DNA of 64,000 nucleotides from NCBI GenBank assembly GCA_964016885.1, contig OZ024747.1, positions 20,832,001-20,896,000 of the forward strand, given 5' to 3'. This stretch comes from Eledone cirrhosa (Eukaryota). The notes below the pieces were generated by a model. That model made no database searches, was not told where the DNA came from, and saw only the letters and a list, made by a program, of their open reading frames with translations. The position numbers and the translations under genes are program-made. The first letter of the stretch is position 1, and every line of letters starts with the position of its first letter. Below are positions 1,761 to 64,000 of this stretch, one piece after another.

Positions 1761-2237
1761 CTTGGGTCAATTTATCTATTTTCCCCTACAAACAAATTAC
1801 TAGCCTAATTGCCTAAAGTAAACATCATTCCTTGTCCAGTTTGAATAAGACGTGATTCGTTTTGCTATCAGTATTGTGGACGTTTTTCACGAGGTGAAAT
1901 TACATTGAAAATATATTTTTTGTTATGTGTGCCATCAACACAAAGATAGATAATAAATTTCTAATGCTGCTGTTTTTCGTTTGCAGAAAAAGGCATAAAT
2001 TTGCGAAGGAAACTATGTTCTCCCACTCGTAAAAGAAACTGATGGCTGCCTCATGCAGAAACGCTTACAATCTTTCAAACGACAAAAAAAACAACACATA
2101 TTTACGGAAAGTAAACAAGAATAAAATACAAGTTCTTAATAAATCACATGTACAGCGCCCCCACCAGTAAAGGTATAGTTTTATGGAAAAAAATAACAAA
2201 AATAGTTTGAGCAACTTTAACAAGACTAGCGATAAAA

Positions 2238-14200: not shown

Positions 14201-17200
14201 AGCAACAGTAGCAACAACAACAACAGTAGCAACAGCAACAACAGTAGCAACAGTAGCAACAGCAGCAACAAAAGCAACAACAGCAACAGTAGAAACAGCA
14301 GCAATAACAGCAACAGCAGCAACATTAGCAACAGTAGCAATAACAGCAACAGTAGCAACAGCAGCAACAGCAGCAACAGTAGCAGGAGTAGCAACAGTAG
14401 TAATAGTAGCAACAGTAACAACAACAGCCACAGCAGCAACAGCAGCAACAAAAGCAACAGCAGCAACAAAAGCAACAGTAGCAACAGTAGCAATAGTAGC
14501 AACAGTAGCAACAGCAGCAACAGCAGCAACAGCAGCAACAACAGCAACAGTAGCAACAGTAGCAACAACAGCAACAGTAGCCACAACAGCCACAACAGCA
14601 TCAGTAGCAACAGTAGCAACAACAGCAACACCAGCAACAGTAGCAACAGTAGCAACAGCTGCAACAGTAGCAACAGCAGCAATAACAGCAACAGTAGCAA
14701 CAGTAGCAACAGTAGCAACAGTAGCAACAGTAGCAACAGTAGCAACAGTACCAACAGCAGCAACAGTAGCAACAGTACCAACAGTAGCAACAGTAGCAAC
14801 AGTAGCAACAGTAGCAACAGTAGCAACAGGAGCAACAACAGCAACAGCAGCAACAACAGCAACAGTAGCAACAGTAGCAACAGTAGCAACAGTAGCAACA
14901 GTAGCAACAGTAGCAACCGCAGCAACAACAGCAACAGTAGCAACAGCAGCAACAGTAGCAACAGCAGCAACGAAAGCAACAGCGGCAACAAAAGCAACAG
15001 TAGCAACAGTAGCAACAGTAGCAACAGTAGCAACAACAACAACAGTAGCAACAGCAGCAACAGCAGCAACAGTAGCAACAACAGCAACAACAGCAACAGC
15101 AGCAACAGTAGCAACAGTAGCAACAGTAGCAACAGCAGCAACAGTAGCAACAGTAGCAACAGTAGCAACAGTAGCAACAGTACCAACAGTAGCAACAGCA
15201 GCAACAACAGCAACAGCAGCAACAGTAGCAACAGTAGCAACAGCAGCAACAACAGCAACAGTAGCAACAACAGCAACAGTAGCAACAGTACCAACAGCAG
15301 CAACAGAAGCAACAGGAGCAACAGTAGCAACAGTAGCAACAGCAGCAAAAACAGCAACATTACCAACAGTAGCAACAGAAGCAACAGTAGCAACAGTAGC
15401 AACAACAGCAACAGTAGCAACAGTAGCAACAGTAGCAACAGTAGCAACAGCAGCAATAACAGCAACAGTAGCAACAGCAGCAACAGTACCAGCAGCAGCA
15501 ACAGAAGCAACAGTAGCAACAGTAGCAACAACAGCAACAGTAGCAACAGTAGCAACAGTAGCAACAGTAGCAACAGCAGCAACAACAGCAACAGTACCAA
15601 CAGCAGTAACAGAAGCAACAGGAGCAACAGTAGCAACAACAGCAACAGTAGCAACAGCAACAACAGTAGCAACAGTAGCAACAACAGCAACAGTAGCAAC
15701 AGTAGCAACAGTAGCAACAACAGCAACAGCAACAGTAGCAACAGTAGCAACAGTAGCAACAGAAGCAACAGGAGCAACAGCAGCAACAGTAGCAACAGTA
15801 GCAACAGTAGCAACAGTAGCAACAACAGCAACAGTAGCAACAGTAGCAACAGTAGCAACAACAGCAACAGCAACAGTAGCAACAGTAGCAACAGTAGCAA
15901 CAGAAGCAACAGTAGCAACAGTAGCAACAGTAGCAACAGAAGCAACAGGAGCAACAGTAGCAACAGTAGCAACAACAGCAACAGTAGCAACAACAGCAAC
16001 AGCAACAGTAGCAACAGTAGCAACAACAGCAACAGCAACAGTAGCAACAGTAGCAACAGTAGCAACAGAAGCAACAGGAGCAACAGTAGCAACAGCAGCA
16101 ACAAGAGCAACAGTAGCAACAGTAGGAACAACAGCAACAGCAGCAACAGTAGCAACAGCAGCAACATCAGCAACAGAAGCAACAGTAGCAACAGCAGCAA
16201 CAGTAGCAAAAACAGCAACAGTAGCAACAGTAGCAACAGTAGCAACAGTAGCAACAGTAGCAACAGTCGCAACAACAGCAAAAACAGCAACAGTACCAAC
16301 AGCAGCAACAGAAGCAACAGGAGCAACAGTAGCAACAGTAGCAACAGCAGCAAAAACAGCAACAGTAGCAACAGAAGCAACATTAGCAACAGTAGCAACA
16401 ACAGCAACAGTAGCAACAGTAGCAACAGTAGCAACAGTAGCAACAGCAGCAATAACAGCAACAGTAGCAACAGCAGCAACAGTACCAGCAGCAGCAACAG
16501 AAGAAACAGTAGCAACAGTAGCAACAACAGCAACAGTAGCAACAGTAGCAACAGTAGCAACAGCAGCAACAACAGCAACAGTACCAACAGCAGCAACAGA
16601 AGCAACAGGAGCAACAGTAGCAACAACAACAACAGTAGCAACAGCAACAACAGTAGCAACAGTAGCAACAGCAGCAACAAAAGCAACAACAGCAACAGTA
16701 GAAACAGCAGCAATAACAGCAACAGTAGCAACAGCAGCAACAGCAGCAACAGTAGCAGGAGTAGCAACAGTAGTAATAGTAGCAACAGTAACAACAACAG
16801 CCACAGCAGCAACAGCAGCAACAAAAGCAACAGCAGCAACAAAAGCAACAGTAGCAACAGTAGCAATAGTAGCAACAGTAGCAACAGCAGCAACAGCAGC
16901 AACAGCAGCAACAACAGCAACAGTAGCAACAGTAGCAACAACAGCAACAGTAGCCACAACAGCCACAACAGCAACAGTAGCAACAGTAGCAACAACAGCA
17001 ACACCAGCAACAGTAGCAACAGTAGCAACAGCTGCAACAGTAGCAACAGCAGCAATAACAGCAACAGTAGCAACAGTAGCAACAGTAGCAACAGTACCAA
17101 CAGCAGCAACAGTAGCAACAGTACCAACAGTAGCAACAGCAGCAACAGCAGCAACAGTAGCAACAGCAGCAACAGCAGCAACAGCAGCAACAGCAGCAAC

Positions 17201-17389
17201 AGCAGCAACAGCAGCAACAGCAGCAACAGTAGCAACAGTAGCAACAGCAGCAACAGTAGCAACAGTAGCAACAGTAGCAACAACAGCAACAGTAGCAACA
17301 ACAGCAACAGTAGCAACAGTAGCAACAGCAACAACAGTAGCAACAACAGCAACAGTAGCAACAGCAGCAACAGTAGCAACAGTAGCAAC
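2238..17389. repeat. 15.15-kb (AGTAGCAAC)n 9-mer/triplet satellite with nested higher-order repeats
   Basis: Directly visible. Rare variants recur at fixed spacing: CCGC at 7246, 9700, 12463 and 14917; GTGGCA at 5607 and 10833; GTAGG at 8496, 13713 and 16122. Confidence 0.97.
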
Positions 17390-42971: not shown

Positions 42972-44332
42972 TGGCGTAAACATTTCAATACAATAGGAGG
43001 AAACATAATAGTACCACTCATAATGTTGCAGATGTGCGACGAAAGAACTTTGATAGACTATATATATATTTATATCTGTATCTTTAAACATTGATTGCCA
43101 AATAAATTAACTATATAAAGATATAAAAGATACAGAAGCGAAACCAACGAAACAGTGAGTATGTTCTGTTGTTATTTCTGGCAATATTATAACAATATGC
43201 AGAAATACATCTTCGAAACTCTATATTACGATTGTCTGGATGAAATTAATCTTTTTTGTACGTAATTCATATTTGGTGAAATTCATTATATCCCAATAGT
43301 TATGCGATGTAAGTCATGTAACGTAGCCAACGTATAGAAAATATTTAGATAAACCGTTAAAATTCATTTGTAGAAACTAGCTTCAGTTTCAGTTAAATGT
43401 AAGCCAGTGGATCAAGAAATGTAAAGAATGAGTTACCAATACCCCAAGCCCTAGAGTAACTGATATTTTCTTTTTTATATTCTACCGATGAAACATTAAA
43501 TCGACACGATCTTCATACATTTGTCAGTTATCGCGTAAACACGGCTCGTGTGCACATTTCTTCAATTGTAGCTTCATCAAATCGCTTAATTCTTTTTCTG
43601 AGTTATAGTTCACTAAATTCTACGTTTACTAAATTTTGATATGAAAAGTGCAAAGTTCGAATACCATTAGTGATACATGCATACATGCATATATACATGC
43701 ATAAATACATACATATAATCGTACATACATACACACGCACATACATACATACGTACATACGTACATACATACATACATACATACATACATACATACATAC
43801 ATACATACATACATACATACATACATACATACATGCATGCATGCATACATACATACATACATACATACATACATACATACATACATACATACATACATAC
43901 ATACATACATACGTACGTATGTACATACATAAATACTTACACACATACATATATACATACATATACAGAAACTGATATGTCAAGAAGTACCTTTATATCT
44001 AAGTAGGGTTAGAAGCAATAAACCGGAACATATTCTGAGTAATCGACTGTTACATAGGAAGAGTTGGTCAGGAATAGCCGCAAAGACCTCCATATAAAAC
44101 TAACATCAGTTTGACACCAAACTCACTGGGGCTAAATATCTAATCAGTGTCTTTTAATGAAGTTTGGGTCTTTCAAAATAGCAGCTGTCATCGATATTTA
44201 CGATTCAATTTATTCATCCCTCTATTATACGCATTCTCTTCCATTATCTAGCTTTGTCTCTCTATCTCTCTCTCCTTTACTCCCCCTCCCCCGCTCTCTA
44301 TCTCTCTCTCCTTTACTCTATTCCCCCCTCCC

Positions 44333-44774: not shown

Positions 44775-45380
44775 CAGGTCGATATAAATCTACATATTAA
44801 GTAATAGGATCGATTCTCCATTTATATCTCATTTTTTATTCCCTTCTTGAGAATAATGGGCTCTGCCAGGTTTAAGATGCACCTATCATTCATATCAAGG
44901 GTTACAGTTACATACATGATAGCTGCCCCCTCGTTATCGAGTATGGCCATTGCACAATATACCATTATTAATAATTATTAATTAATTCTATCGTGCAATG
45001 CCTGTGCGTGAAGATATTTTTTCAAGTGAGGAAAGACTGTGCACTGAGCCAATCCCACTCTCTGAGCGACAGTAGCTATAACCCGAAAAGAAGAAAAGAT
45101 CAACATCATTGGTAACTACTGAGCCACAGGTTTTATATCGGAGTTATCCCAGTTTCCTGAGTTGCCTTCTCCTAGAAGAATGCCCTGACAAAGGTTAGGG
45201 GTCCTTCACTCCCAGTGGTTTAACCGCGCGATCGGGTGTCTAGCCCAGCTATTTCTATGCCCCCGCGCATATACATACACATGCACCCATGTATATACAC
45301 ATATACATACATATGTACATGTGCATATACATATTTACACACTTTTGGATGGCCGTTGACTCTTATGTGTTCTTCCACCC
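44775..45380 (-). mobile_element. Family D non-coding retroposon-like copy (sister of family C)
   Basis: Reverse complement of 59367-59862 and 57333-57692. Contains CTAGGAGAAGGCAACTC. Confidence 0.75.
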
Positions 45381-45405
45381 TACATACATACATACATACA
45401 TACAT

Positions 45406-46012
45406 GGTGGCTGCCAACTCGTTTTCGAGTACGGCCACTACTTTATATCCATGCAGGAGAACCCCTACCGATGCGCTGAATGAGTGTGACTTTTTAGTCC
45501 AGCCAGCGACTTGAAAACTCTGGTACAAACACTATACTTGTGACAACCATTGACACATAGTGCTGGGCCCATGGTACCATGTGACGACTAGTGCAGAGAG
45601 ATCTCCAGATATAAAGCAATGCCTGTGCCGTGAAGCTTTTATAGTGAGCAAAGGCACTGCACAAAGCCAGTCCCACTCTCTTAACCAAGATGATATTTAC
45701 CAAAAAGAAGAACAAGTCAACATCATTGGATACCATCAGAGTTGCAGGTGTTATATCAGAGTTTTCCTTCTCCTAGAATTCTGCCTTGACAAAGGCTAAG
45801 GGGTCATATCTCCCAGTGATTTTGGATGGCCACTGACTCTTAAGAGCTCCTTTGCCCTTTGACAGGTTTTGTTTTTAGTCCTGCAGGATGTCCAAAGTCA
45901 CCCTCCTCACCAAGGAAACCTTGGTGGGGTTGCCAGTTTAGTCGCCAACGACCCGACCATGAGACAGGTTGTACTGGGATACATGTTACCAGTAGCACCA
46001 ACTGGTGACCTG
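45406..46012 (-). mobile_element. Family C ~605-bp non-coding element, copy 1, flanked by (CATA)n
   Basis: Four near-identical full-length copies share the same ends. The strand is inferred from the RTE-5'UTR-like GGCA..CTAGGAGAAGGAAAACTCTGA motif and the (ATGT)n tail. Confidence 0.8.
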
Positions 46013-46065
46013 ACATAATACATACATACATACATACATACATACATGCATGCATACATATATAC

Positions 46066-46336
46066 ATGTAAAACATTCCAAAAATGCTGCCTCTAATAAC
46101 TGCATATACACTTGTACAGATATAAAGCATATACACATACACACATACAATTTAAAACAGACACATCCACACATACAATAACATCCATACCTACACACAC
46201 ATGCTTGCATGCAAACATGCATACATATATACCTCGTTGATGTTGTGTAAATTCCAATGAGAGAGTCTTGTATCTATGTTAGAAACCGACTCTCTCTCTA
46301 TTGGCAAACATTTGTGAAATTATAAAACCAGAAGAA
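46066..46336 (+). mobile_element. R4/Dong family B, 3'-end-only copy
   Basis: Matches 53757-54009; (CATA)n on both sides. Confidence 0.85.
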
Positions 46337-46386
46337 CATACATACATACATACATACATACACACATACATACATACATACATACA

Positions 46387-49300
46387 ATGGCGACCGTTGT
46401 GGTCAGTGTCCGATAATTGGACGTGTGTAATTACGGCTTACATGAAGGCAACATACCATATATTGGAAAAAGTTGAGCTACATTACGCGGTAAGATTACA
46501 TACAATAATTCTACATAAGTGTTTGAACTGTAAGTGTGTTGTAAAACACCTATTTATATGAACGATACATACACTTATGATATATGAACGATACATACAC
46601 TTTAACATATAAATGCAACGTTGTTATATTACATTTATAAAGAAATATAAAAGTAACGTTTTCGATTCAGAAACAAAAATATAAGTGTTTGAACTGTGAA
46701 TGTTGTGAATATGTTGTAGAACACCTATTTATATGAATGATACATAAACTTTAACATATAAATACAGCATTGTTATATTATATTACATTCGTAAAGGAAT
46801 ATACTAAGTAACGGTTCTTTTTGTTCTCGATTCAAACGATTCAAGAACAACGTTTAAAACACAGTTGTAGAATTAAAAACTAACTGAAAAGAAATATTAC
46901 CCAAGCTGTGAATAACTTTAAATTTGATTCTGACAGAACTTTGTCGTAACTTTTAAAGAAGATCATCGACTATTTAAAAAAAATAAATACAAAATATTAG
47001 TGAATAGACGAACTCATCATGGCAAAAAGTACAAGTCTCCTTCGACCAAATCGCAATTACAACCGTTGTATACAGTGGAGCTACGAGCTTAACAAAGAAT
47101 TATATGAAGCATACAAACAATCTGAACCCCAAAAGTTCGGTTTTATGCAAAGGCTAAAAACTTTATGGAACTCCAAACACCCAGAATTAGACTTTTCTCC
47201 AAAGCATCTAAATGAACAGGCAAAACGTATCATTAGATGTAAATTGATACATCTAACGGAATCGAGTGATACTACAAATACAGCCCTTGTAGACAACCAC
47301 CCCACCTCCACTGACAGACAAAGAGAATGGCCGGCTAAATCTAACAGTGAACAGCTCACCAACAATTTTGCTGAAATCCATCCCACTTCCACTGAAGAAC
47401 AGCGAGAAAGGTCAGCTGACTCTAGTAGTAATTGTCACCACATCAACAACGAGGCTGCAATTCATGACTCTACTGAACAAACAGAGCACCAAAAACTTGT
47501 GGGCACCCTACAAGTGATATGGAACGATATGTTTCAAGAGATACACAGCCTTAATGTGAGTGACAGACCATACAACACTAGAGTCAGTAAAGAACCCACT
47601 AAATTGGAATTGGAAGCGGTGAACGAAATAGCTGGCAATTATCTGAAGGCTATACGATCTAAAGGTGTAGAAACGACATTTGAAACGCTCAATGTTTTGT
47701 TATATGTTTCAGCTGTCACATTGCTATCATATAACACACATCTAAAACCACGCAATCAAGATACAAACAGAAAGCCTGAACCAGCGTGGATGCGAAATTT
47801 AAAAACCAAAATTTTGTCCCTGAGACGAAGTATCTCACACATCGCAGTCGTTATGAAATGCAACATAGAGAGAAACTTCACACGACACCAGGAAGACCTA
47901 AAGAAAAAGTTAGAGAGACGATTTGGAGATACCAAATTTAAAACTTTGAACTCCAAATTACACCAGTTGAAACAACAACTCACAGCTACAACAGAAAGAC
48001 TAAAATATAAGTCAACAGCCCATAAACGACAAGTGCTAAATAGATTGTTTGCCAGAGATCCTAAATCAGTTTATCGCAGCTTCGGTGGCAAAAGCTCAAT
48101 CCCTGTAAACGACACCCCTTCAAAAGAACAGGTTGAGAACTACTGGAGATCTGTATGGGAAACGGATGACGGATTCAACAGACAAGCTAATTGGCTAAAA
48201 CAACTGGAACAGGACTACTGCCAACATGTCCAGACAAAACAATATGACATAGATGGGTCAATACTGGAAACAGCTCTACAGAAAATGTCGAATAGGAAAT
48301 CGCCAGGCCCAGACCTCATTACAGGATACTGGTTGAAGAATTTCACTTTCTATCGGCAAGATCTCATACGGCTGTTTACAGAAACCATTAAGGGCACACA
48401 AGAACTGCCCAGATGGTTATCAACTGCCACTACTCTCCTCATTCCCAAAAATAGCCAAACCACCCTTGCTAAAAATTACCGCCCAATTGCCTGCCAAAAC
48501 ATCATGTATAAATTATATACTGGGTGCCTTAACCTGTTCTTACAGGATCACTGTGCTACCAACAACATCATAACACCTGAGCAAGCTGGTGGAAAGAGGG
48601 AGGTGTGGGGTTGCATAGATCACCTACTAACTAACAAAATGATTCAGGAAAAAACAACAAAGAATCGCAGAAACATGACTGTCGTGTGGCTGGACTATCA
48701 AAAAGCATTTGATAGTGTACCTCATGGGTGGATTATTAAGGCTTTACAGTTAGCTAAAGTCCCACAACCATTAGTAGCTGCTGTTGAACGCCTGACCAAG
48801 AACTGGTACACCAATTTGATCCTTAGAGGTGAGAAGGAGCAGGTTAAGACTGATAGGATACATTACCAGAAGGGCATCTTTCAGGGTGATAGCTTGTCAG
48901 TACTACTCTTCGTTCTCTCACTGAATCCACTATCTTACCTACTCAGGAAACAAGGTGGACAAAGAAGTGGGCCCAGAAGTATCTCCCATCTTTTCTTTGT
49001 TGATGACCTGAAGTTGTATGGGCCAAATATCAATGACATCAAGAAACAATTGGACCTCATTACACAATTTTCAACCGACATCAAAATGAAATTTGGTGAG
49101 TCCAAGTGTGCATATTTGGCAGTAAAACGTGGAAGAGCTGTGCCCTCCTCTAGAAATCTAGATATGAACGGCCTGACAATACAACCTCTGCAGTCAGGTG
49201 ACAACTACAGATATCTTGGACAGGATGAGAATGTCAGATATGATGGACCCATAAATAAGGAGAGAACCAGAACTGAATACCTCAGAAGAGTAAAAAAAAT

Positions 49301-50609
49301 ATGGTCATCAGAACTGTCAGCATACAACAAATACATTGCCCACAATACCTATGCTGTGCCAATTATAACGCCAACATTTGGCCTACTGAACTGGTCATTG
49401 CAAGAACTAAGTGAGATGGATGTTAGAACTCGTAAACTTCTCAGTGTTACTGGGAACTTTAACATCAATGGTGATGTGGATAGGCTATACTTCTCACGCA
49501 AGGAAGGTGGCCGGGGTCTAAAATCAATATTAACAACATATGGGACCCGGATAGTAACACTGAAGCAACACCTTCAACAGAGGAAAAAGGTTGGCGACCA
49601 TCTTGCTCAGGTTTATGAGCATGAAAAAAGAAATATCATTAGAATAGCGACTGATCTGGAGGAGAGATATGGAATAAAGCCTGATATAAATCTCTCACCC
49701 AGAGAAATCGGAAGATCCTATTCAATGTTCAAACAAGAAAAAAAAATTGACCAATTTACAGAGAAAGTTGTGCATGGATACTTGAGGCGTAAAACACAGA
49801 CCATAGAGGGGATAAACCACTCAAAAAGCCTGGCATGGAGTTCCGACAAGTTTATGACATCACACCTTGAGGGATATCTCTATGCAATACAGGAACAAGA
49901 ACTCCCTACCAAATATCTGCTGCACAAAAGAGGAGGGCCAGCAGCTGACAATAAATGTAGGCTATGTAAAACAAAGATCGAGGATGTAAGCCACATTGTT
50001 GCCAGCTGCGAAAGAATGTCATCTCGCTACTACCTCCCCATGAGACACGATGGGATAGCTAGAACTATCTGGAACGCACTTCGGAAAACAAAATTAACAA
50101 CAAACGAGGAAGAATATATTGAGACAGATGGCACTAAGGAATACTGGTGGAACCTGAAAATAAAAACTGCCACCAAATTAAAGCACAACCGGCCTGATAT
50201 TGTAGTTTGGGACCACACATTGAAAACGTGTTCTGTTGTGGAGATCAGCTGCCCACTTGATGTAAACGTTGTCAGAAAAATACAGGAGAAGGAGGACATC
50301 TACGGACCATTGATGAGGAGCTTACAAATCCAGTATCCAAGATACACCTTTAGCTTCATACCCATCATTATTGGTGCTACGGGTTATATACCAACCCGCT
50401 TGGACCAGAGTATGACCGAACTTGGATTTGCGGACAAAAAGCGCAGCTCCCTAATTCATAGTCTACAAATGGCTGCGATAGCTGGCACCTTCAAAATATG
50501 CAAAACATTCTTGCGATTCAAGGGATGACAATTTCTTTTCTTTTACAACCTTGCCACCAGGAAGGTGGCCGGTCAAAAAAATATACTCGAAATTAAGAGA
50601 AAGAGAAAA
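46387..50609 (+). mobile_element. R4/Dong-type RLE non-LTR retrotransposon, family A (5' boundary uncertain)
   Basis: Single long ORF and an 81-nt 3' UTR joined to (CATA)n; (CATA)n also lies upstream of 46387. Confidence 0.85.
47019..50528 (+). CDS. Intact 1169-aa reverse transcriptase / CCHC / restriction-like endonuclease protein
   Basis: RT motifs [42 protein letters not shown] and YRYLG; zinc knuckle [18 protein letters not shown]; RHD; RLE motif [16 protein letters not shown]; R4-like N-terminal W-rich domain. Confidence 0.95.
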
Positions 50610-50676
50610 CATACATACATACATACATACATACATACATACATACATACATACATACATACATACATACATACAT

Positions 50677-51279
50677 GGTGGCTGCCAACTCGTTTTCGAG
50701 TACGGCCACTACTTTATATCCATGTAGGAGAACTCCTACCGATGCGCTAAACAAGTGTGACTTTTAGTCCAGCCAGCGACTTGAAAACTCTGGTACAAAC
50801 ACTACACCTGTGACAATTATTGACACATAGTGTTGGGCCCTTGGTACCATGTGACGACAAGTGTAGAGAGATCTCCAGATATAAAGCAATACCTGTGCCG
50901 TGAAGCTTTTATAGTGAGCAAAGGCACTGCACAAAGCCAGTCCCACTCTCTTAACCCAAGATGATATTTACCAAAAAGAAGAATAAGTCAACATCATTGG
51001 ATACCATCAGGGTTGCAGGTGTTATATCAGAGTTTTCCTTCTCATAGAATTCTGCCTTGACAAAGGCTAAGGGGTCATCTCTCCCGGTGATTTTGGATGG
51101 CCATTGACTCTTAAGAGCTCCTTTGCCAGGTTTTGTTTTTAGTCCTGCAGGATGTCCAAAGTCACCCTCCTCACCAAGAAACCTTGGTGGGGTTGCCAGT
51201 TTAGTCACCAACGACCCGACCATGGGACAGGTTGTACTGGGATACATGTTACCAGTAGCACCAACTGGTGACCTGACTG
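50677..51279 (-). mobile_element. Family C copy 2
   Basis: Near-identical to 45406-46012; (CATA)n flanks. Confidence 0.8.
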
Positions 51280-51350
51280 ACATACATACATACATACATA
51301 CATACATACATACATACATACATACATACATACATACATACATACATACA

Positions 51351-51423
51351 AGTCTTGTGTCTATGTTAGAAACGGACTCTCTCTCTATTGGTAAAAATTT
51401 GTGAAATTATAAAACCAGAAGAA
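51351..51423 (+). mobile_element. R4/Dong family B, 73-bp 3' stub
   Basis: Matches the last ~70 nt of 52141-54009; pure (CATA)n on both sides. Confidence 0.85.
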
Positions 51424-51446
51424 CATACATACATACATACATACAT

Positions 51447-52051
51447 GGTGGCTGCCAACTCGTTTTGGAGTACGGCCACTATTTTATATCCATGTAGGAG
51501 AACCCCTACCGATACGCTGAAGGAGTGTGACGTTTTAGTCCAGCCAGCGATTTGAAAACTCTGGTACAAACACTACACTTGTGACAATTATTGACACATA
51601 GTGCTGGGCCCATGGTACCATGTGACGACAAGTGCAGAGACATCTCCAGATATAAAGCAATGCCTGTGCCGTGAAGCTTTTATAGTGAGCAAAGGCACTG
51701 CACAAAGCCAGTCCCACTCTCTTAACCAAGATGATATTTACCAAAAAGAAGAACAAGTCAACATCATTGGATACCATCAGTGTTGCAGGTGTTATATCAG
51801 AGTTTTCCTTCTCCTAGAATTCTGCCTTGACAAAGGCTAAGGGTCATCTCTCCCGGTGATTTTGGATGGCCATTGACTCTTAAGAGCTCCTTTGGCCTTT
51901 GACAGGTTTTGTTTTTAGTCCTGCAGGATGTCCAAAGTCACCCTCCTCACCAAGAAACCTTGGTGGGGTTGCCAGTTTAGTCGCCAACGACCCGACCATG
52001 AGACAGGTTGTATTGGGATACATGTTACCAGTAGCACCAACTGGTGATCTG
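51447..52051 (-). mobile_element. Family C copy 3
   Basis: Near-identical to 45406-46012; (CATA)n flanks. Confidence 0.8.
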
Positions 52052-52140
52052 ACATACATACATACATACATACATACATACATACATACATACATACATA
52101 CATACATACATACATACATACATACGTACATACATACATA

Positions 52141-54009
52141 TTTGTCATTAAACTCCTTGTCCTTTCTGCTCAAGAAATGTGAGGGATACATCATTGGCTC
52201 ACAGGAGGACAGAAATACAAACCTAACCCATAATTTCTTTGTGGACGATATGAAACTCTATGCCAAGAACATGGATGGGATGAAGAAAAATCTTGACCTG
52301 GTTACAACGCTCTCAAGGGATATAGGAATGGAGTTTGGCCAAGATAAATGCTCATACATGACTGTAAAGCAAGGAAAAACAACAACCCAATCTAGCAACA
52401 TAGTCATCAATGGCCTAACTGTTTCACCGATATCTGATGAGGACTGCTACAGATACCTGGGGATAGATGAGAACATATCCTATAATGGTATCTGTAATAA
52501 AGAACGCGTAACCAAGGAATACTACTGGTCATCGGAATTCTCTGCGCAAAACAAAACAGTGGCTCACAATGTGTTTGCTGTGCCTGTCCTAACACCAACG
52601 TTTGCAATACTCAATTGGACGATAGACGAAATCCGAGCAGTTGATGTTGTTGGAACTCGAAAAATACTGAACAACACCGGAAACTTCCACATCAACAGTG
52701 ACATAGACCGCCTTTACTTGAAACGTAAGCAGGGAGGCAGAGGCCTAACATCAGTCCAGACAACATTTGAATGTCGCATCATATCTCTCCGACAACATCT
52801 ACGAACCTCGAAGCGTAGGAGCCCGTTTCTCGAGCAAGTCTATCTGCATGAAACAGATAAGATCATGAGAGTTGGGAAGGAACTCCTCGAGCGATATTCC
52901 CTGTGTGATAATCAAAAACTCACACCCAGGGATGTCGCTCAGCAGTATCGCAGTGAATCCATGGATGAAAAACCGCATGCCTATCAGCAAAAACTCATGC
53001 ATGGATATGTTGCCAGGAAGCTCCAGAGTGAGAGTAATATAAATAAGGAAAGTAGTCTATCTTGGACCAACAACCGCTATATTGGCTCCCACTTTGAAGG
53101 ATACGCTTTTGCAATCCAGGAACAGGAGATAGCACGAAATACCTGATTCACAAAAGAGATAGGGATGCAGGCAAAACACCTAGATATGATAACAAGCGCA
53201 GACTCTGCAGAACTAACATCGAGGATATCACCCATGTCATCAGCAGCTGTCCAAAGATGTCTACGCGGTACTATCGACATATGAAGCATGATGTAGTGGC
53301 CAAAACACTGTACAATGCAGTTCGTAAAAAGGATAGCCCCGATAATAAACACATTAAAAGCTACAGTATTGTGGAAGACATCCATGTACATAATATGAAA
53401 GAGTACTGGTGGAATGTTCCAGTAAAAACCAATAAAATGCAGGCATAACAGACCAGATATTATGATATGGGACAGGGAGAAGAGAGCATGCACAGTAGTG
53501 GAAATTAGCTGCCCAGCAGATGCCAATATAATATCAAAGATTAGTGAAAAGGAGAATATTTATGCAGAACTGATGAGAAATCTGCAGATACTCCGCCCTG
53601 ATTACACCTTCAGATTTATGCCTGTGATTATTGGGGCACTGGGATATGTTAGTAACTGCCTCAATACAAATCTTGAAAAGCTAGGCTTCACAGGAACAGA
53701 AAGAACACAACTAGTTAGGAAATTACAAGTACAATCCATTAATGGAACAGTAAAAATATGTAAGACATTCCAAAAATGTTGCATCTAATAACTGCATATA
53801 CACATATACAGATGCAAAGCATATACACATGTACACATTCAACTCAAAACATACACATCCACACATACAATAACATCCATATCTACACATGCACGCATAC
53901 ATACCTACCTAGTTGAAGTTGTGTAAATTCCAATGAGAGAGTCTTGTGTCTATGTTAGAAACCGACTCTCTCTCTATTGGTAAAACTTTGTGAAATTATA
54001 AAACCAGAA
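52141..54009 (+). pseudogene. R4/Dong family B, 5'-truncated and frameshifted RT-CCHC-RLE copy
   Basis: Begins mid-RT (LSLNSLSFLL..FFVDDMKLY..YRYLG), with frameshifts near 53140 and 53430, RPDIMIWD..VEISCP, a stop at 53788 and a ~220-nt 3' UTR; (CATA)n flanks. Confidence 0.92.
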
Positions 54010-54255
54010 CATACATACATACTTATATTTATATAAAATTAAAACAAATACAAAATTGTTTCTTGCTTTATTTTTCATTTAATACACTTTATTAAATATA
54101 AATGTATTTTTCATCCCCAAAAAAATTTTGGAAGATTTTATATATGGGGTGCGGGAGAGGAGGGGGGGGGGGGGGGGGGGGCACCGAAATATGTTAAGTG
54201 CTTGGAGCCTACCGTCTCTAGCCCACCTCCCCCGTCAACGATCGCCACACATTTC

Positions 54256-54341
<86 letters not shown>

Positions 54342-55257
54342 GTAGATAGATATTTATATGTATATATATGTATATATAAATATATATATGTGTGTGTGTG
54401 TATTTCAGTAGCCAATTTATATATCTTACCCTGCAGTGTACTTTTAAAGCTGAAACTAACAGTAGTGCAGTTTATATTTCTAATTTCATTGTGTATATGT
54501 ATGTTTGTATATGTATAAGTGTGTTGGTGTGTTGCTCATGAACCATTTGTGTATGTGTTTATGTATGTATGAATGTATCTGAGGCTCTATATGTTTTTTT
54601 AATGTGTGTTCTAACCTGTACCTCTTGTTTTAAATGGTGGAGCTGTAGGAGATGGTAAGAATGGTGTATAAGAGGATATTGGGATCGTGTTTAACTGTGA
54701 ATGACACAACTGAGATAAAACAGATTCTAGGTCTAATTAACCTACAACTATAAATGCATAGAGCTCTGTATATACACATAGAAACATACGGACGTGTAGA
54801 GACAAACATATACAGACACCCGAATATACATAGAAATACACAATGAATTCTCTATTATCATAAAAATGAAGTCTTACTGGGTTTTTTCTTCTTGTTTTTT
54901 TCATACTCCTGAATAGAGTAACTAATGCTTCATTCATGTGTGATTATATGGTTATGTGTATATACGTGTAGCTACCTGAGTGTGTCTGTGTACGTAAGTT
55001 AATTTGTATGTGTGTGTGTGTGTGCGTTTAACTATATGTAGGTGTTTGAGTAGGGACACAGATGGTAAAAAATCCCCATTCTACACTGCCCCCACTCTTT
55101 ATCCTTCAATTGCTCTCTGACACATGGTTTCTCTCAAATGAATATCAGGTTCGTTTCGTCTCAGTTTATATCAGCAGTATATATTGTTAACAGCCTTAGA
55201 CATACTAAGATATAGATATGGATTTCATCCAACTATTATTTATATACACAGACAAAT

Positions 55258-55383
<126 letters not shown>

Positions 55384-55485
55384 GGAAAAAATGAAACGAA
55401 ATTTCATTTCTCACTCTTAGTACGGCTGTTACTTAAATATAAGTATGTATACGTACATACATATATATGTATGTACGTATACATA

Positions 55486-55548
<63 letters not shown>

Positions 55549-55553
<5 letters not shown>

Positions 55554-55733
55554 AACGAGTAGGACCCCGACGGCTGAGCTCAAGCAGTTTCGACGGCTAA
55601 TTCTGGACCAAGAATTAGCCGTCGAAAGGGCTTGAGCTCAGCCGTCGGGGTCCTACTCGTTCCTATTACCCACTCTACTACCCTAAGTATTGAGTACTTT
55701 GGTGCGTTATGGTTCCTTACCACATTTCCTTCG

Positions 55734-55735
<2 letters not shown>
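55549..55735 (+). mobile_element. Family E, second full palindromic copy in (TA)n
   Basis: Arms at 55549-55604 and 55611-55666 with a 6-nt spacer and the same tail. Confidence 0.8.
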
Positions 55736-55796
<61 letters not shown>

Positions 55797-55868
55797 TATA
55801 TATATATATATATATATACTTACATATATACATATATATATATATGTGTGTGTGTGTGTATTTGTCTG

Positions 55869-55915
<47 letters not shown>

Positions 55916-56250
55916 GTTTGTCTGTGTGTGTACACGTACACACACAGAGACACAAATATATATTATATGGATGTAACTAAGACAAAAGAGAATTGAAAAT
56001 TAATTCAACCCATATATTGAAAGAAAAATATGTACAATAAAGGCAGTCTCTGGGGATGTGTTTCAGACTGTTAAACGTACAGAAACCTGTGATGACTTAA
56101 AGCGTTCTTCATTGCTAATGTAAAACTACTCACAATTTATGAGGCTACTTAAATACATCGTGTAAGCCGATATACCAAATAAACTTTTGTGATAGTAATG
56201 TCGTTGTACCGCTAGCGCTGGAGAATTCTGGCATTCTTGCTCCCTAAACC

Positions 56251-56400
56251 AGGAAGCTGGCAAATCATGTCTGGTCCCGCAAAGATGCCACTGTGGATTT
56301 CTCCATTAAATGGAATATCTTGGAAAAATCAAGTGCTTACTTCAACTGTAAAAATACATGTAAAATGTGCAACAATGAACGCTGGAACATCTTAATACGG
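56251..56400 (+). pseudogene. Penelope-like (Naiad-type) GIY-YIG endonuclease C-terminal remnant
   Basis: KLANHVWSRKDATVDFSIKWNILEKSSAY..TCKMCNNERWNIL fits the L..H.W..KD..F.IKW.I..Y..CxxC..E..I pattern. Confidence 0.65.
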
Positions 56401-57020
56401 TTACATACTATAAAAATATGCCTATATGTGCTTAAATATATCCCTCATAATTGGAAATACCCTGGAAAACATCTAGCCACAAACCACAACTTGGTACTTA
56501 CTGTTATAAAACTTTCCCATCTGTAATATCTTTGTAACACACCAAACACGAAAAGAGAAACAATAACCTCTCTACGAAGTTCTAACCTCTATTGTAGCTA
56601 TCTAGCACCTAAGAAACCTTTGAGATAAAACCCCCACTAAATCTTTCCAATGTACATAATCGATTTTCAAACCTGAAGTTGCTTCCATTTTGCACAAGTC
56701 TAATTTAGAGTTATTCTCTTTTATCTAACTTACAATCGACCACCCACCCTCAGTTTTCTCCCCTTCTATAAGAACTCGTAGAAATTTAATGCTCACATCT
56801 ATAACAAATATGTCGAACTCTCGAACTACGGAAATAACAACTTCCCCAGCGAAACCGGCATATTCGACGGCTGAAAAGGTGGATTTAACCATATTCTGTA
56901 TATTACAACTTATCACTCGGACTGAGGATTCTAGCAACTTTGGATATAAATTTTTTTTATACGAAATTCCCTACATTTTATATGTATGCATAATCTACGT
57001 GCATATAAACATGTGTGTAT

Positions 57021-57692
<672 letters not shown>

Positions 57693-57749
57693 ATATATAC
57701 ATATGTAATATATATAAATAGTGTGTGTGTGTATGTATATATATATATG

Positions 57750-57782
<33 letters not shown>

Positions 57783-58238
57783 GTGTGTGTGTGGGTGTGT
57801 GTGGGTGTGTGTGGGTGTGTGTGTGTGCGTGTGTGTGTGTGTGTGTGTGTATGTGTGTGTGTGTGACGCAGCACCGAAAATCCAATGAAAAGAATCTATA
57901 TTTATTGACTGTATGAATTAGAGAGATGAGTTGAGACCTGATAGCCTGATGTTTCCTGATTACTGGATTAAATGATGTGATGTGAATGGTTATCAACAAT
58001 ACAGTGCAGCATAATATGCACTATAAATTGATACGTCGCTATATGTAACCACATACACATACATACACATGCACACCCATCCGCACAGGCACACACACAC
58101 ATACATCTAAACATTTCTATTTATGTGTGTACGTATGTACGTATCTACATACATACACACATACATACATACATACATACATACATACATACATACATAC
58201 ATACATACATACATACATACATACATACATACATACAT

Positions 58239-58844
58239 GGTGGCTGCCAACTCGTTTTCGAGTACGACCACTACTTTATATCCATGTAGGAGAACCCCTA
58301 CTGATGCGCTGAACAAGTGTAACTTTTTAGTCCAGCCAGCGACTTGAAAACTCTGATACAAACACTACACTTGTGACAATTATTGACACATAGTGCTGGG
58401 CCCATGGTACCTTGTGATGACAAGTGCAGAGAGATCTCCAGATATAAAGCAATGCCTGTGCTGTGAAGTTTTTATAGTGAGCAAAGGCACTGCACAAAGC
58501 CAGTCCCACTCTCTTAACCAAGATGATATTTACCAAAAAGAAGAACAAGTCAACATCATTGGATACCATCAGGGTTGCAGGTGTTATATCAGAGTGTTCC
58601 TTCTCCTAGAATTCTGCCTTGACAATGGCTAAGGGGTCATCTCCCCCGGTGATTTTGGATGGCCATTGACTCTTAAGAGCTCCTTTGCCCTTTGACAGGT
58701 TTTGTTTTTAGTCCTGCAGGATGTCCAAAGTCACCCTCCTCACCAAGAAACCTTGGTGGGGTTGCCAATTTAGTCGCCAACGACCCGACCATGAGACAGT
58801 TTGTACTGGGATACATGTTACCAGTAGCACCAACTGGTGACCTG
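58239..58844 (-). mobile_element. Family C copy 4 (solitary)
   Basis: Near-identical to the other copies; (CATA)n flanks. Confidence 0.8.
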
Positions 58845-59318
58845 ACATACATACATACATATATACATACATACATACGTAAGGAATCGTTCTTAGATGT
58901 ACAACGCACAAATTCAACCATATTGTAGTCTAGTTTTCTTTTTCTTTTGTGTGGCTTATTCAGGTCACGATCATAAGGTCGTGCGTTCGATTCCTGCCGG
59001 CGTGTTTTGTCTTTTAAAGACCACTGGGCTCCCTGTTTAACATAAGTTATTTTTTATAGTTACCTCCCTTTTCATTTAGATTATTCAATGGATTTGTCTC
59101 TTTATAGATAAATTCGGGGTTACCTATCCTTAGAACTCTCCTATGTTGTCTAGTATCTTCACGGTGGGAAGACATTTTTATTTATATGACAGGCTGAATG
59201 AGTTGAATAACCCAACGAAACGTAAGCACTTGAACATGTCACTGTTGTAACTAAATATACTTAACTTATCCTATGGTCTGAGTGCTATAGCCCTTTATTT
59301 ATACCAAATGTGTACTAC

Positions 59319-59350
<32 letters not shown>

Positions 59351-59366
59351 TGTATGTGTATGTATA

Positions 59367-59892
59367 GGCGCTGGGATATAGAAATAGTCGGGCTAGATAC
59401 CCGATCGCGTGGTTAAACCACTGGGAGTGAAGGACCCCTAGTCTTTATCAGGGCATTCATCTAGGAGAAGGCAGCTCAGGAGACTGGGATAACTCCGACA
59501 TAAAACCTGCGGCTCAGTAGTTACCGATGATGTTGATCTTTTCTTCTTTTCTGGTTATAGCTACTGTCGCTCGGGGAGTGGGATTGGCTCAGTGCACAGT
59601 CTTTCCTCACTTTAAAAAAAATCTTCACGCACAGGCATTGCACGATATAATTAATTAATAATTATTAATAATGGTATATTGTGCAATGGCCATACTCGAT
59701 AACGAGGGGGCAGTCATCATGTATGTAACCGTAACCCTTGATATGAATCATAGGTGCATATTAAACCTGGCGGAGTCCATTATTCTCAAGAAGGGAATCA
59801 GAAATGAGATATAAATGGAGAATCGATCCTATTACTTAATATGTAGATTTATATCGACCTGGAGGCAAATTTATAACGAGGTGGCAGCTATC
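59367..59892 (+). mobile_element. Family D copy with a doubled 3' terminus, flanked by (TATG)n
   Basis: ATAACGAGG.GGCAG..ATCATGTATGT occurs at ~59699 and again at ~59873. Confidence 0.75.
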
Positions 59893-60500
59893 ATGTATGT
59901 ATGTATCTATGTATAAGACCTATTCATACACATACTCATTGTAATTATGCCGACATATAAGTATTAAAGTATATAAACCACAAAATCTTTATATAACTTT
60001 CTGGTTTAAGTTGGGTCACGCCGTTGATTAAATAAAATAAACCTCAAGGCGAAACATGTTGATGTGAGTCTATGAGTTACGTATCAAAAGTGTTGTTTTG
60101 TTTTTTCATATATTTCTATATATCCATAGATCTGAAACACTGGCGTACGCATATGCTTACACCAATAGAAAAACCGCCCGGTGGGCAGTATTTCTGCTTA
60201 TATATGTATGTGTATATGTATGTATGCATGTATGTATGTATGTATGTATGTTCAATTACAAATTCATATATGCGGTGCCTATGGTGTAACAAAAGAGACA
60301 TTCTATTATATAGCACACACAGATTCTTACAGAAACACATGCATGCATGCATACATGCATACATGCAAACATACATACATACATACATACATAAGTACGT
60401 ACGTATATACATACATACAAACATACATATATACATGCATACATACGTACATACACACATACATACATACATACGTACATACATACACATATATACACTG

Positions 60501-61168
60501 AACACATTAAAAGCTACAGCATTGTGGAAGACATCCACGTACATAATATGAAAGAGTACTGGTGGAATGTTCCAGTAAAAACCCCAATAAAATGCAGGCA
60601 TAACAGACCAGATATTATGATATGGGACAGGGAGAAGAAAGCATGCACAGTAGTGGAAGTTAGCTGCCCAGCAGATGCCAATATAATATCAAAGATTAGT
60701 GAAAAGGAGAATATTTATGCAGAACTGTTACGAAATCTGCAGATACTCCACCCTGATTACACCTTCAGATTTATGCCTGTGATTATTGGGGCACTGGGGT
60801 ATGTTAGTAACTGCCTCAATACAAATCTTGAGAAGCTAGGCTTCACAGGAACAGAAAGAACACAACTAATTAGGAAATTACAAGTACAATCCATTAATGG
60901 AACAGTAAAAATATGTAAGACATTCCAAAAATTTTGCATCTAATAACTGCATATACACATATACAGATGCAAAGCATATACACATGTACACATTCAACTC
61001 AAAACATACACATCCACACATACAATAACATCCATATCTACACATGCACGCATACATACCTACCTAGTTGATGTTGTGTAAATTCCAATGAGAGAGTCTT
61101 GTGTCTATGTTAAAAACCGACTCTCTCTCTATTGGGAAAGAATTTGTGAAATTATAAAACCAGAAGAA
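60501..61168 (+). mobile_element. R4/Dong family B, 5'-truncated copy (RLE domain plus 3' UTR)
   Basis: Near-identical to 53348-54009 but without the 2-bp deletion (KTPIKCRHNRPD is in frame); CATA-rich flanks. Confidence 0.9.
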
Positions 61169-61744: not shown

Positions 61745-63020
61745 GGTGAGTAATATTGTAGAACAATAAAACTATGCATATATCAGATATGTAGCACTCA
61801 ACAATTGGTAGAACTGGAGTATATATAATAAAGATGAAATAAAGATGGTTATAATAGTTCCATATTATTATACGTATTTCGATGGTTATAATAGTTCCAT
61901 ATTATTATACGTATTTCGAATACAAAATCATGCTGCGACAGATGTGTTCTCTTCAGATAAAAAAAAAGGTACAATGATATGAGATATAATAGCACTTGTT
62001 TATAGAATAGTGCTAAGTCTACATATGACAGAAATATATGTGTTAATACTATAGTAAGAAATAGATAGGAAAAGAGAAGAAATGGAAAGAAGAAGAGAAA
62101 AAAGGAAAAAGAAAGAAAAGAAGAAGGAAGAAGCGAGAGAAAGAGAGAGACTTTTGATCAGGAACGCTGTCAAAATGAAAACAGCTGTAAATAATGATTA
62201 AAAAATAAATTGATGAGGAGTATGTGCGAATATTATAGAAGGTATTCAAATATTAGAGGTCTAAATATAGAAACTGGGTATTTTATTTTATATTGGGTTT
62301 AAATACTAAAAATTGGTTTAAGAAGTGTAAAATTGTATTAATAAAATAGATATAAAAAGGTTTTTATAAAATAAAATGAAAATAGTCTATGTATGTCAAA
62401 GTTAATAATTTCTAGTAAAAAATATATATGTGGGGTATACTATTTAAGTTTTATTTTATATCATCAAGTAAATAAAGGAAATTGCTAGAAGGATTTATAA
62501 ACGTAGAAAAAACGTAGAGAAAATCTATTATAATATGACGTCAACTTTTATTTACAAATTCTACGAAGGTTTGAGCGAAAATCTAAGGCTATACAAAAGA
62601 AGATCAAAGGCTTAATATATAATGAGAAAACCAAAATAACACATTGTAGAATATAATGAAAGAGGTGTAAAGATAATAGTGACTCGTGGAATATGTTATA
62701 GGACATCAGCTATATACTTTGTGAAAGGTCTTGTAGGATTTATGATTACAAAGTCCAAATAAATCGGTTCTTCGATTTATTATTGCGTTGAAATTCGAGG
62801 TAATGGTAAATTTTTCAGCTAGACATAAATTACAAACACTAGATATGGAAGCATTGGATCTTCTTTTGTATAGCCTTAGATTTCGCTCAAACCATCGTAG
62901 AATTTGTAAACAAAAGATGACGTCATATTATAATAGATTTTCTTTACGTTTTTTCTACGTTTATAAATCCTTCTAGTAATATCCTTTATTTACTTGATGA
63001 TATAAAATAAAACTTAAATA
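61741..63020 (-). mobile_element. Inverted terminal repeat of a Naiad-type Penelope-like element (endonuclease C-terminus, 3' UTR, hammerhead)
   Basis: Minus strand 62840-62706 reads SVCNLCLAEKFTI..IINRRTDLFGLCNHK; a hammerhead lies at 61.9 kb; the segment ends in (TA)n at 61740. Confidence 0.7.
61900..61962 (-). ncRNA. Minimal type I hammerhead ribozyme
   Basis: UUUUAU-CUGAAGA-GAACACA..UGUAUUC-GAAA-UACGUA-UA^AUAAUA, with a palindromic stem III. Confidence 0.7.
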
Positions 63021-64000
63021 CACGACAACAAAAAAACGGAGACACCACAACAAATTGCAAAACGACAGCAATGCACTACTAAAAAAACTACGCAACACCA
63101 ACAGTATTATAGTAAAAGCAGACAAAACATCAAACGTATACACCATGAGCCTCAATACATACAATAATTTTATACGACGGGAATTGCACAAAAAATACAA
63201 AAAAAACAACAGAATTTGCACTCACTAGCATTAATAAGGAAGGACTTAGAATAGTAAAAAAACTGAAAATATCTGATAGAAACGAGCCTCTAACCCCACA
63301 TTTAACCTAAAGAATGACAAAAATAATTTCGAAATAGACCCCACAATTAGATTAATATGCCCATCTAAGTCGGATATCGGTAGAATTAGCAAGTATATAC
63401 TAGATAGAGTAATCGCACAAATTAAGGACAAACTAGTAATTAAGCTATAGACTGGTTCAGCAAAATAAACAGTAAAGAAACATCTAACTTCGTACAATTC
63501 GACATTAATGACTACTACTCATCCATATCCCCAGTCACCCTGGGTAAAGCGCTAGCCTTTGCCCAGAAAAATTCGGACCTTACCTCGGACGAAATTAAAA
63601 TAATACTATCTGCTAGAAGGACTATCATTAGATTCGAAAATAGTTGCTGGGAACGAAAAAACAGACAGAATAGCTTCGATATCACAATGGGATCTAACGA
63701 CTCAGCGCAAATAATGGACTTGGTGGGAATATATATAGCGCACGACTTACATAAGGAATTCAATAACCTCCAAGGAGGAATTTATAGAGACGATACACTT
63801 CTTCTAGCCAAAAACCTAAATAATCAGAGCATGGAAAGATTACGAAAAAACATTAGAGTATTCTTCAAAAAACTAGGTCTAGGTATCACTTTCGAACTTA
63901 ACTCTAAAAAAGCAAATTTCTTAGATATAACTCTCAACCTAAACATAGGGTTAATAGAGCCCTTCCATAAGAATAACGAAAATCTAGCCTACATTAGTTA
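63021..64000 (+). pseudogene. Penelope-like element reverse transcriptase (Naiad-type), frameshifted, runs off the window
   Basis: Manual translation gives IIVKADKTSNVY, PTIRLICPSKSDIGRISKYILD, then after a frameshift near 63440 FVQFDINDYYSSI, FDITMGSNDSAQIMDLVG, GIYRDD and NFLDITLNL. Confidence 0.85.

Follow-up and report, generated by a model that had tools for sequence, protein, structure and literature searches.

Two families of R4/Dong-type retrotransposons lie on one strand and in one register of (CATA)n arrays in Eledone cirrhosa

RESULTS

A nest of elements in (CATA)n arrays

The window analyzed here is a stretch of 64,000 nucleotides (nt) of a contig from the 3.0-Gb genome of Eledone cirrhosa, and all positions are window coordinates. 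Positions 45383 to 54021 hold a single nest of mobile elements embedded in (CATA)n microsatellites, in the order C-B-A-C-B-C-B, in which A and B are two families of R4/Dong-type long interspersed nuclear elements (LINEs) and C is a short element in the opposite orientation (Table 1). A sequence-only reading of positions 46066 to 61168 had proposed that (CATA)n is the insertion target of A and B, on the basis of five 3′ junctions, one of A and four of B. All five were found where it had placed them, each reading ..GAA/GAAAA joined to CATACATAC on the forward strand; the B copy that terminates at 54009 is shorter by one GAA. The A open reading frame (ORF) was uninterrupted, with zero stop codons, and the four B copies were 5′ truncated at different points, with CATA upstream of each and an imperfect array preceding the copy at 60501. 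The two families were also as divergent as had been supposed, since the A protein matched the window's B remnants at 42% (amino acids [aa] 646 to 1164, across frame breaks) and 53% (aa 1032 to 1167), and blastn detected zero similarity between the A and B untranslated regions (UTRs). Long perfect CATA runs, clustering at 16 to 19 units, occur in the window at 43764-43911, 50610-50673, 51281-51348, 52053-52124, and 58160-58235.

Table 1. Features of the nest and its surroundings (window coordinates) and of the A protein (residue numbers)
Feature	Position	Strand	Remarks
Family A, full-length R4/Dong-type LINE	46387..50609	+	4,223 bp; start base shared by 39/39 full-length copies; common 3′ end ..GAGAAAA
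A 5′ UTR	46387..47018	+	632 bp; sharp 5′ end
A ORF	47019..50528	+	1,169 aa
A 3′ UTR	50529..50609	+	81 bp; abuts CATA
Family B, 5′ truncated	46066..46336	+	B 3830-4087
Family B, 5′ truncated	51351..51423	+	B 4016-4087
Family B, 5′ truncated	52142..54009	+	B 2202-4084; broken RT/RLE coding remnant
Family B, 5′ truncated	60501..61168	+	B 3418-4087
(CATA)n target array	46337..46386	+	B 3′ end to A 5′ end
(CATA)16	50610..50674	+	A 3′ end to element C
(CATA)17	51281..51350	+	upstream of truncated B
(CATA)18 + 3 units	52053..52141	+	upstream of truncated B
Element C	45404..46014	-	~610 bp; no coding region seen; same array, opposite orientation
Element C copy	50675..51277	-	
Element C copy	51445..52053	-	
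Element C copy	58237..58846	-	(CATA)n array without A or B
A protein, likely Myb-like domain	aa 22-74		three helices; pLDDT about 90
A protein, RT, FVDD	aa 660-663		
A protein, CCHC knuckle	from C980		
A protein, RHD	1009		
A protein, RLE, PD-(D/E)xK	PD 1059-1060, E1075, K1091		

Family A encodes an intact enzyme and its copies are young

Family A is a retrotransposon without long terminal repeats (LTRs) of the restriction-like endonuclease (RLE) type, with a single ORF containing a reverse transcriptase (RT), a CCHC knuckle, and a C-terminal PD-(D/E)xK motif. Both A and B have a fixed 3′ end and variable 5′ truncation and lack LTRs. A Pfam scan of the A protein returned RVT_1, with zf-RVT below the cut-off, and no family of the apurinic/apyrimidinic endonuclease (APE) type, the RLE lying at the C terminus. 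The FVDD, CCHC, RHD, and PD..E..K motifs were conserved over 80 aligned proteins, and the AlphaFold model of the A protein (predicted local distance difference test score [pLDDT], 88.5) had as its best fold match the R2 structures of target-primed reverse transcription (E, 1e-34). The N terminus of A aligned with those of the Bombyx and Pediculus proteins, and the Atlas lead for aa 22 to 74 was Myb_Rap1, with a score of 0.85. A search for additional families with protein P0020 returned family A alone.

Of 39 full-length A copies, 28 retained an ORF of 1,165 aa or more, with a median identity of 99.86%, in a sample biased toward intact copies because part of it came via protein search. Among 33 copies of equal ORF length, the pairwise median was 7 differences in 3,507 nt; six of them encoded one identical protein, and the window copy was in the minority solely at aa 842. 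The codon differences among A copies (101 synonymous and 286 non-synonymous) appear to reflect drift that followed insertion and do not single out a source copy. The youth of the copies suggests that family A is likely still active.

The 3′ junction of family A is fixed in strand and register

Across the whole genome, 1,656 A 3′ ends were counted by exact pattern. The next base was C in 1,583 cases and A, G, or T in 73, and CATA followed directly in 1,489, compared with 0.66% of positions in a background of 600 kb of evenly spaced genome, where the two-sided CATA pattern occurred at 0.075%. The exceptions were sampled as the first 30 of the 73 non-C ends, the 94 ends in which C is not the start of CATA lying outside the sample; 29 of the 30 lay in CATA arrays (two or more CATA within 40 nt), and TATG was present in none. 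Across the genome, A copies are not commonly flanked by other sequence.

Individual A loci were selected by element sequence or protein score and never by flank. After exclusion of one row as an anchor error (L066, position 4066), they gave 83 distinct 3′ junctions, of which 78 ran straight into CATA, 4 reached it within 2 to 4 nt, and 1 passed via extra A's into an AT/CATA mosaic. In 78 junctions, the C, A, T, and A of the first repeat unit were present in 78, 78, 76, and 77 cases, respectively.

This near-invariant first unit and fixed register bear on the possibility that RNA rather than protein gives the specificity, with the CATA tail of read-through transcripts annealing to nicks made in (TATG)n by a loosely specific endonuclease. 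Such transcripts could exist, since CATA follows every donor copy; R2 priming is aided by 3′ homology, and element C, which enters the same arrays loosely and TA arrays as well, indicates that a looser route exists. However, apart from the register, the 3′ flanks follow the style of the local array with no common tail, and long upstream runs are found at truncated 5′ ends too, and we regard this explanation as unlikely.

Outside this genome, four sequencing runs were examined, small-share runs being excluded. Contigs of run X7, which carries another organism label, continue into CATA past the A 3′ end, and in reads of run X24 CATA precedes one A truncation point. A-like sequence is present in runs under several organism labels; none of the runs listed with such sequence is RNA, and they have no bearing on expression.

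CATA also precedes family A, including truncated copies

At least three CATA within 40 nt upstream were found in 76 of the 80 A copies for which both junctions were available (38 of 39 full-length and 38 of 41 truncated copies), against 1.1% of the background. The three truncated exceptions were one internal deletion, one array that was short and lay between tandem copies, and one site of plain AT-rich sequence. CATA is thus not confined to 3′ ends, and its presence at the 5′ flanks of truncated copies rules out a mere tail and identifies CATA as the target, as the sequence-only reading had proposed. Full-length copies were joined as ACA|ATGGCG in 37 of 39 cases, and in 18 of 38 anchored truncated junctions (hand count) 2 to 5 nt were shared with the repeat. 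Odd 5′ junctions at L116, L102, L399, L206, and L219 show joining at CATA-like words within A's 5′ UTR or short reiterated sequence.

The content of variant repeats correlated between the two flanks of A copies (rho, 0.36; P = 0.0009; full-length copies only, 0.53), which argues that the array pre-existed and was split by the insertion. The perfect run was longer upstream in 63 copies and longer downstream in 15 (P = 4e-8), with medians of 51 bp upstream and 17 bp downstream and a median sum of 71 bp. Background CATA arrays were bimodal, at 12 to 19 bp and 25 to 94 bp, with 14 of 95 at 41 to 94 bp; the summed flanks of A match the long genomic arrays. Together, the asymmetry of the runs and their summed length indicate that A mostly splits long arrays near the 3′ end.

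The excess of upstream over downstream runs could also be expected if the element itself wrote CATA at the 5′ junction by slippage, the long upstream runs being in part products of insertion, and reiterated sequence is indeed seen at single junctions (L399 in A; L206 and L219 in B). In a systematic test of 81 flanks, however, words from the element start were found upstream in 2 cases and downstream in 4, and the upstream and downstream lengths add up to ordinary long arrays; later slippage might also magnify a small initial bias. This account therefore appears very improbable.

The largest possible exact target duplication did not exceed 4 bp in 9 of the 39 full-length A copies and 7 bp in 14 of them, which excludes a fixed long duplication, including one of 13 bp. 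A 27- to 28-bp match at L012 was considered as a target duplication and set aside as an isolated case.

Perfect runs accounted for 0.36% (CATA), 4.3% (TA), and 0.85% (CA) of the background; TA repeats were thus 12 times commoner than CATA, yet they are not used as such by A. This avoidance bears on a further alternative, in which insertion is broad and copies outside microsatellites have been purged by selection or are missing through an assembly effect. Nothing speaks directly for it, although the arrays are non-coding and tolerated. Purging could not yield a strand and register, or avoidance of the commoner TA and CA arrays, in copies that are 0.2% diverged; it is contradicted by the genome-wide counts of A ends, and in the same assembly another family, E, sorts to TAA (see below). 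We consider it the least probable of the explanations.

Family B is an earlier, decayed wave

Exact B ends joined to YATA numbered 4,681 genome-wide, a count without a denominator. In 30 B loci picked by element sequence (hand count), YATA followed directly in 27 and within 4 nt in 2, and the remaining one led into a CACG/CA repeat; B has a few off-target sites. Compared with the full B copy of 4,087 bp, most copies are 85 to 95% identical, and a whole ORF was present in 0 of 20 long B loci. The A protein matched B at 35% in the N-terminal half and 50% in the C-terminal half. B is a decayed earlier wave, older than A. Over 62 B copies with both junctions, the downstream run measured 7 bp or more in 57 and the upstream run 8 bp or more in 45; B junction calls are blurred by the age of the copies and by B's own CATA-rich 3′ UTR.

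A (TAA)n-targeting relative in the same genome and the position of A and B

Family E, which was found via a Bombyx homolog, has a 1,216-aa frame with 29% identity to A, and every one of its 30 loci ends in (TAA)n, several of them also with TAA at truncated 5′ ends. It is a young Dong-like LINE (G000 loci L301 to L330, e.g., C2:127435634-127439101) with copies about 99% identical and a 5′ UTR of about 1.1 kb. The 80 metagenome loci include 44 that extend to the C terminus, and a TAA-type run lies behind 21 of these (hand count). In two closer relatives, L221 (43% to A) and L225 (36%), (CTTA)n abuts the 5′ end (positions 1 to 101 and 1 to 56, respectively) and the 3′ end lacks a repeat, and L226 has a short CTTA run at its 3′ end, at about 3645. 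CTTA is one base from CATA, and as a target of relatives of A and B it is a lead from single contigs.

In quick RT trees, with the R4-type locus L277 as the outgroup, A, B, L221, L225, and L226 formed one clade that excluded E, Bombyx, and the loci ending in TAA, with support in the Shimodaira-Hasegawa-like approximate likelihood ratio test (SH-aLRT) of 100 (86 rows) and 99 (46 rows, 40 of the 86 being omitted for speed). A repeat label is available for 6 of the 23 rows of this clade in the 46-row tree. A pairs with Argonauta and B pairs with L221, and the two families are hence not sisters; the nearest named homolog of A is from Argonauta hians (53%). A and B thus appear to belong to a distinct R4/Dong subclade, in which the other members with known flanks adjoin (CTTA)n. 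With respect to the TAA-ending elements, A shows full-length homology and a sister position. The assignment to R4/Dong made from the window alone is supported by domain order, fold, and the RT tree, which contains no named Dong, Rex6, HERO, or NeSL reference.

Locus L277 lies in 28S ribosomal DNA (rDNA) with a 13-bp duplication and has a fold like the hepatitis delta virus (HDV) ribozyme at its 5′ junction (custom scan; weakly with Rfam), the coordinates being 112-203 and about 4070-4082. This site and duplication are those of R4. An HDV-like ribozyme at the 5′ junction was not detected in A, B, or E by the custom scan and Rfam, for which L277 was a positive control, although a divergent fold could be missed. 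Rfam matches on the nest were repeat driven and below gathering scores, and were rejected.

Other elements of the window

The four copies of element C in the CATA arrays of the window had gone unremarked in the sequence-only reading. Element C is abundant, is ~610 bp long, and occurs in CATA and TA arrays. In loci not chosen for C, 31 copies were whole, and the partial copies lacked the right end in 51 cases, the left end in 3, and both in 4, which indicates that C runs on the opposite strand. Judging from its motifs it is putatively RTE-like. Element D, at 44909-45230, 57382-57699, and 59406-59727, is a relative of C (about 70% across 230 bp) and carries a TATG tail and a 3′ stem-loop similar to that of C. 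The 3′ end of C or D lies within 200 bp downstream of 13 of the 80 A copies. In addition, the window contains a 15-kb tandem array at 2240-17389 (9-bp unit, 1,688 copies, 87% matches), with several frames open for about 5,000 codons; a 173-bp inverted repeat at 62441-62613 and 62849-63020 (95% identical, 235 bp apart); and a broken RT-like coding remnant at 63040-64000, putatively Penelope-like judging from its motifs.

DISCUSSION

A model for insertion into (CATA)n

The targeting of (CATA)n is real, strand-specific, and in register. A and B are very probably R4/Dong-type single-ORF LINEs that insert within (CATA)n on one strand and in one register, with their own protein likely picking the site. 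The protein would bind the upstream CATA repeats and introduce a nick into the TATG strand, from which reverse transcription would be primed. By analogy with R2 biochemistry, the RLE domain would make the nick, which would lie opposite A^CATA, or one base before that should the final A be part of the target; the Myb-like domain and the RT surface would hold roughly 10 to 35 bp of upstream repeat; and the second strand would be joined via microhomology of 0 to 5 nt. Insertion would thereby leave either a small deletion or a duplication no longer than a few bases, to which any multiple of 4 might be added. R2Bm recognizes positions -34 to -22 and -6 to +1, and it requires upstream sequence but can dispense with downstream sequence (PMC10499050); the longer upstream run of A would fit such an R2-like upstream footprint.

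Several observations weigh against this model. At the 3′ end, the remaining one of the 30 sampled non-C ends (L420), an old copy, sits in a CA repeat, and at the 5′ end the junction of L341 is plain AT-rich sequence. The correlation of repeat style between flanks is not significant among truncated A copies alone (rho, 0.18). In B, the upstream/downstream asymmetry is absent (32 versus 28 over 62 copies; P = 0.7), and 5 of the 62 copies, including those at CA/CACG-type sites, have a downstream run shorter than 7 bp. The duplication length of A is bounded only, empty sites not having been seen. Finally, the candidate Myb identity of the N terminus of A comes from leads only, and a fold search with the low-confidence model of the N-terminal fragment (pLDDT, 63) gave zero PDB matches.

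The finding bears on how site-specific retrotransposons switch targets, and R2-type enzymes are under development for gene insertion. If the model is correct, intact CATA and TAA enzymes, each near-identical among copies and found in one genome, would form a natural pair for locating the domain that reads the repeat. A very young intact RLE enzyme with a simple target, a fixed strand and register, and an intact TAA relative alongside would allow direct domain-swap tests. Thousands of LINE insertions have been steered into one microsatellite class, making nests such as that of the window.

Relation to known elements

RLE clades are mostly site-specific, some for microsatellites (PMC4640811); Dong targets (TAA)n and Waldo targets (ACAY)n (PMC3812793); (TAA)n is given as the target for most insects, molluscs, and cnidarians, and R4/Dong elements are described with a Myb/SANT-like domain (PMC7998251); and Dong and R4 undergo self-cleavage at their 5′ ends, Dong having an HDV ribozyme there (PMC3774820). 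For cephalopods, the accessible portions describe five young Dong-R4 families with 1,129 recent copies in Octopus vulgaris, with no target stated there (PMC13282606), and young Dong-R4 LINEs in O. bimaculoides, likewise without a stated target (PMC9115989).

The sequence-only reading had not recognized CATA as a characterized specificity. For R4/Dong this stands, in that no CATA-targeting element was found in the literature accessible to us, although Repbase, Dfam, the Fell 2025 survey, or the octopus supplements may hold one; for the repeat itself it does not, because (ACAY)n is known for the APE-type Waldo. As far as checked, what is new is an RLE enzyme and a subclade with a (CATA)n target, the class being known and the repeat being a known target of another enzyme type. 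Whether A and B represent an undescribed R4/Dong branch that moved from (TAA)n to tetranucleotides, with (CATA)n in these two families and (CTTA)n in their relatives, and that has lost the HDV ribozyme at the 5′ end seems to us evenly balanced.

Dong of Bombyx mori, DongAg, DongBg, and other R4/Dong elements share with A a single ORF, a Myb/SANT-like domain at the N terminus (a candidate in A), an RT, an RLE, and insertion into microsatellites, and A is about 29 to 30% identical over its length to both the Bombyx protein P0076 and family E. Insertion of A and B is likewise site-specific, yet strictly (TAA)n flanks characterize Dong and E and not A or B, which occupy (CATA)n. The 5′ HDV ribozyme of Dong was found in neither A nor B, and the two fall in a separate subclade (SH-aLRT, 99 to 100). 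R4, a nematode element of large-subunit rDNA with the same architecture as A, occupies a 28S rDNA site with a 13-bp duplication (a literature search for the R4 duplication returned nothing); the R4-type locus L277 has this site and duplication and an HDV-like fold, whereas A has neither such a fixed duplication nor the fold. The target of Waldo (WaldoAg1, WaldoAg2, and WaldoFs1), (ACAY)n, includes (ACAT)n, which equals (CATA)n, but Waldo is an R1-clade APE-type element, whereas A has a C-terminal RLE and no APE match, and the target common to both would be a case of convergence. R2 (R2Bm and R2Tg) provides the best sequence and fold matches to A among solved structures and shares its upstream-biased target use; identity is 18 to 19%, and A differs in having no N-terminal zinc finger seen and in targeting a dispersed microsatellite.

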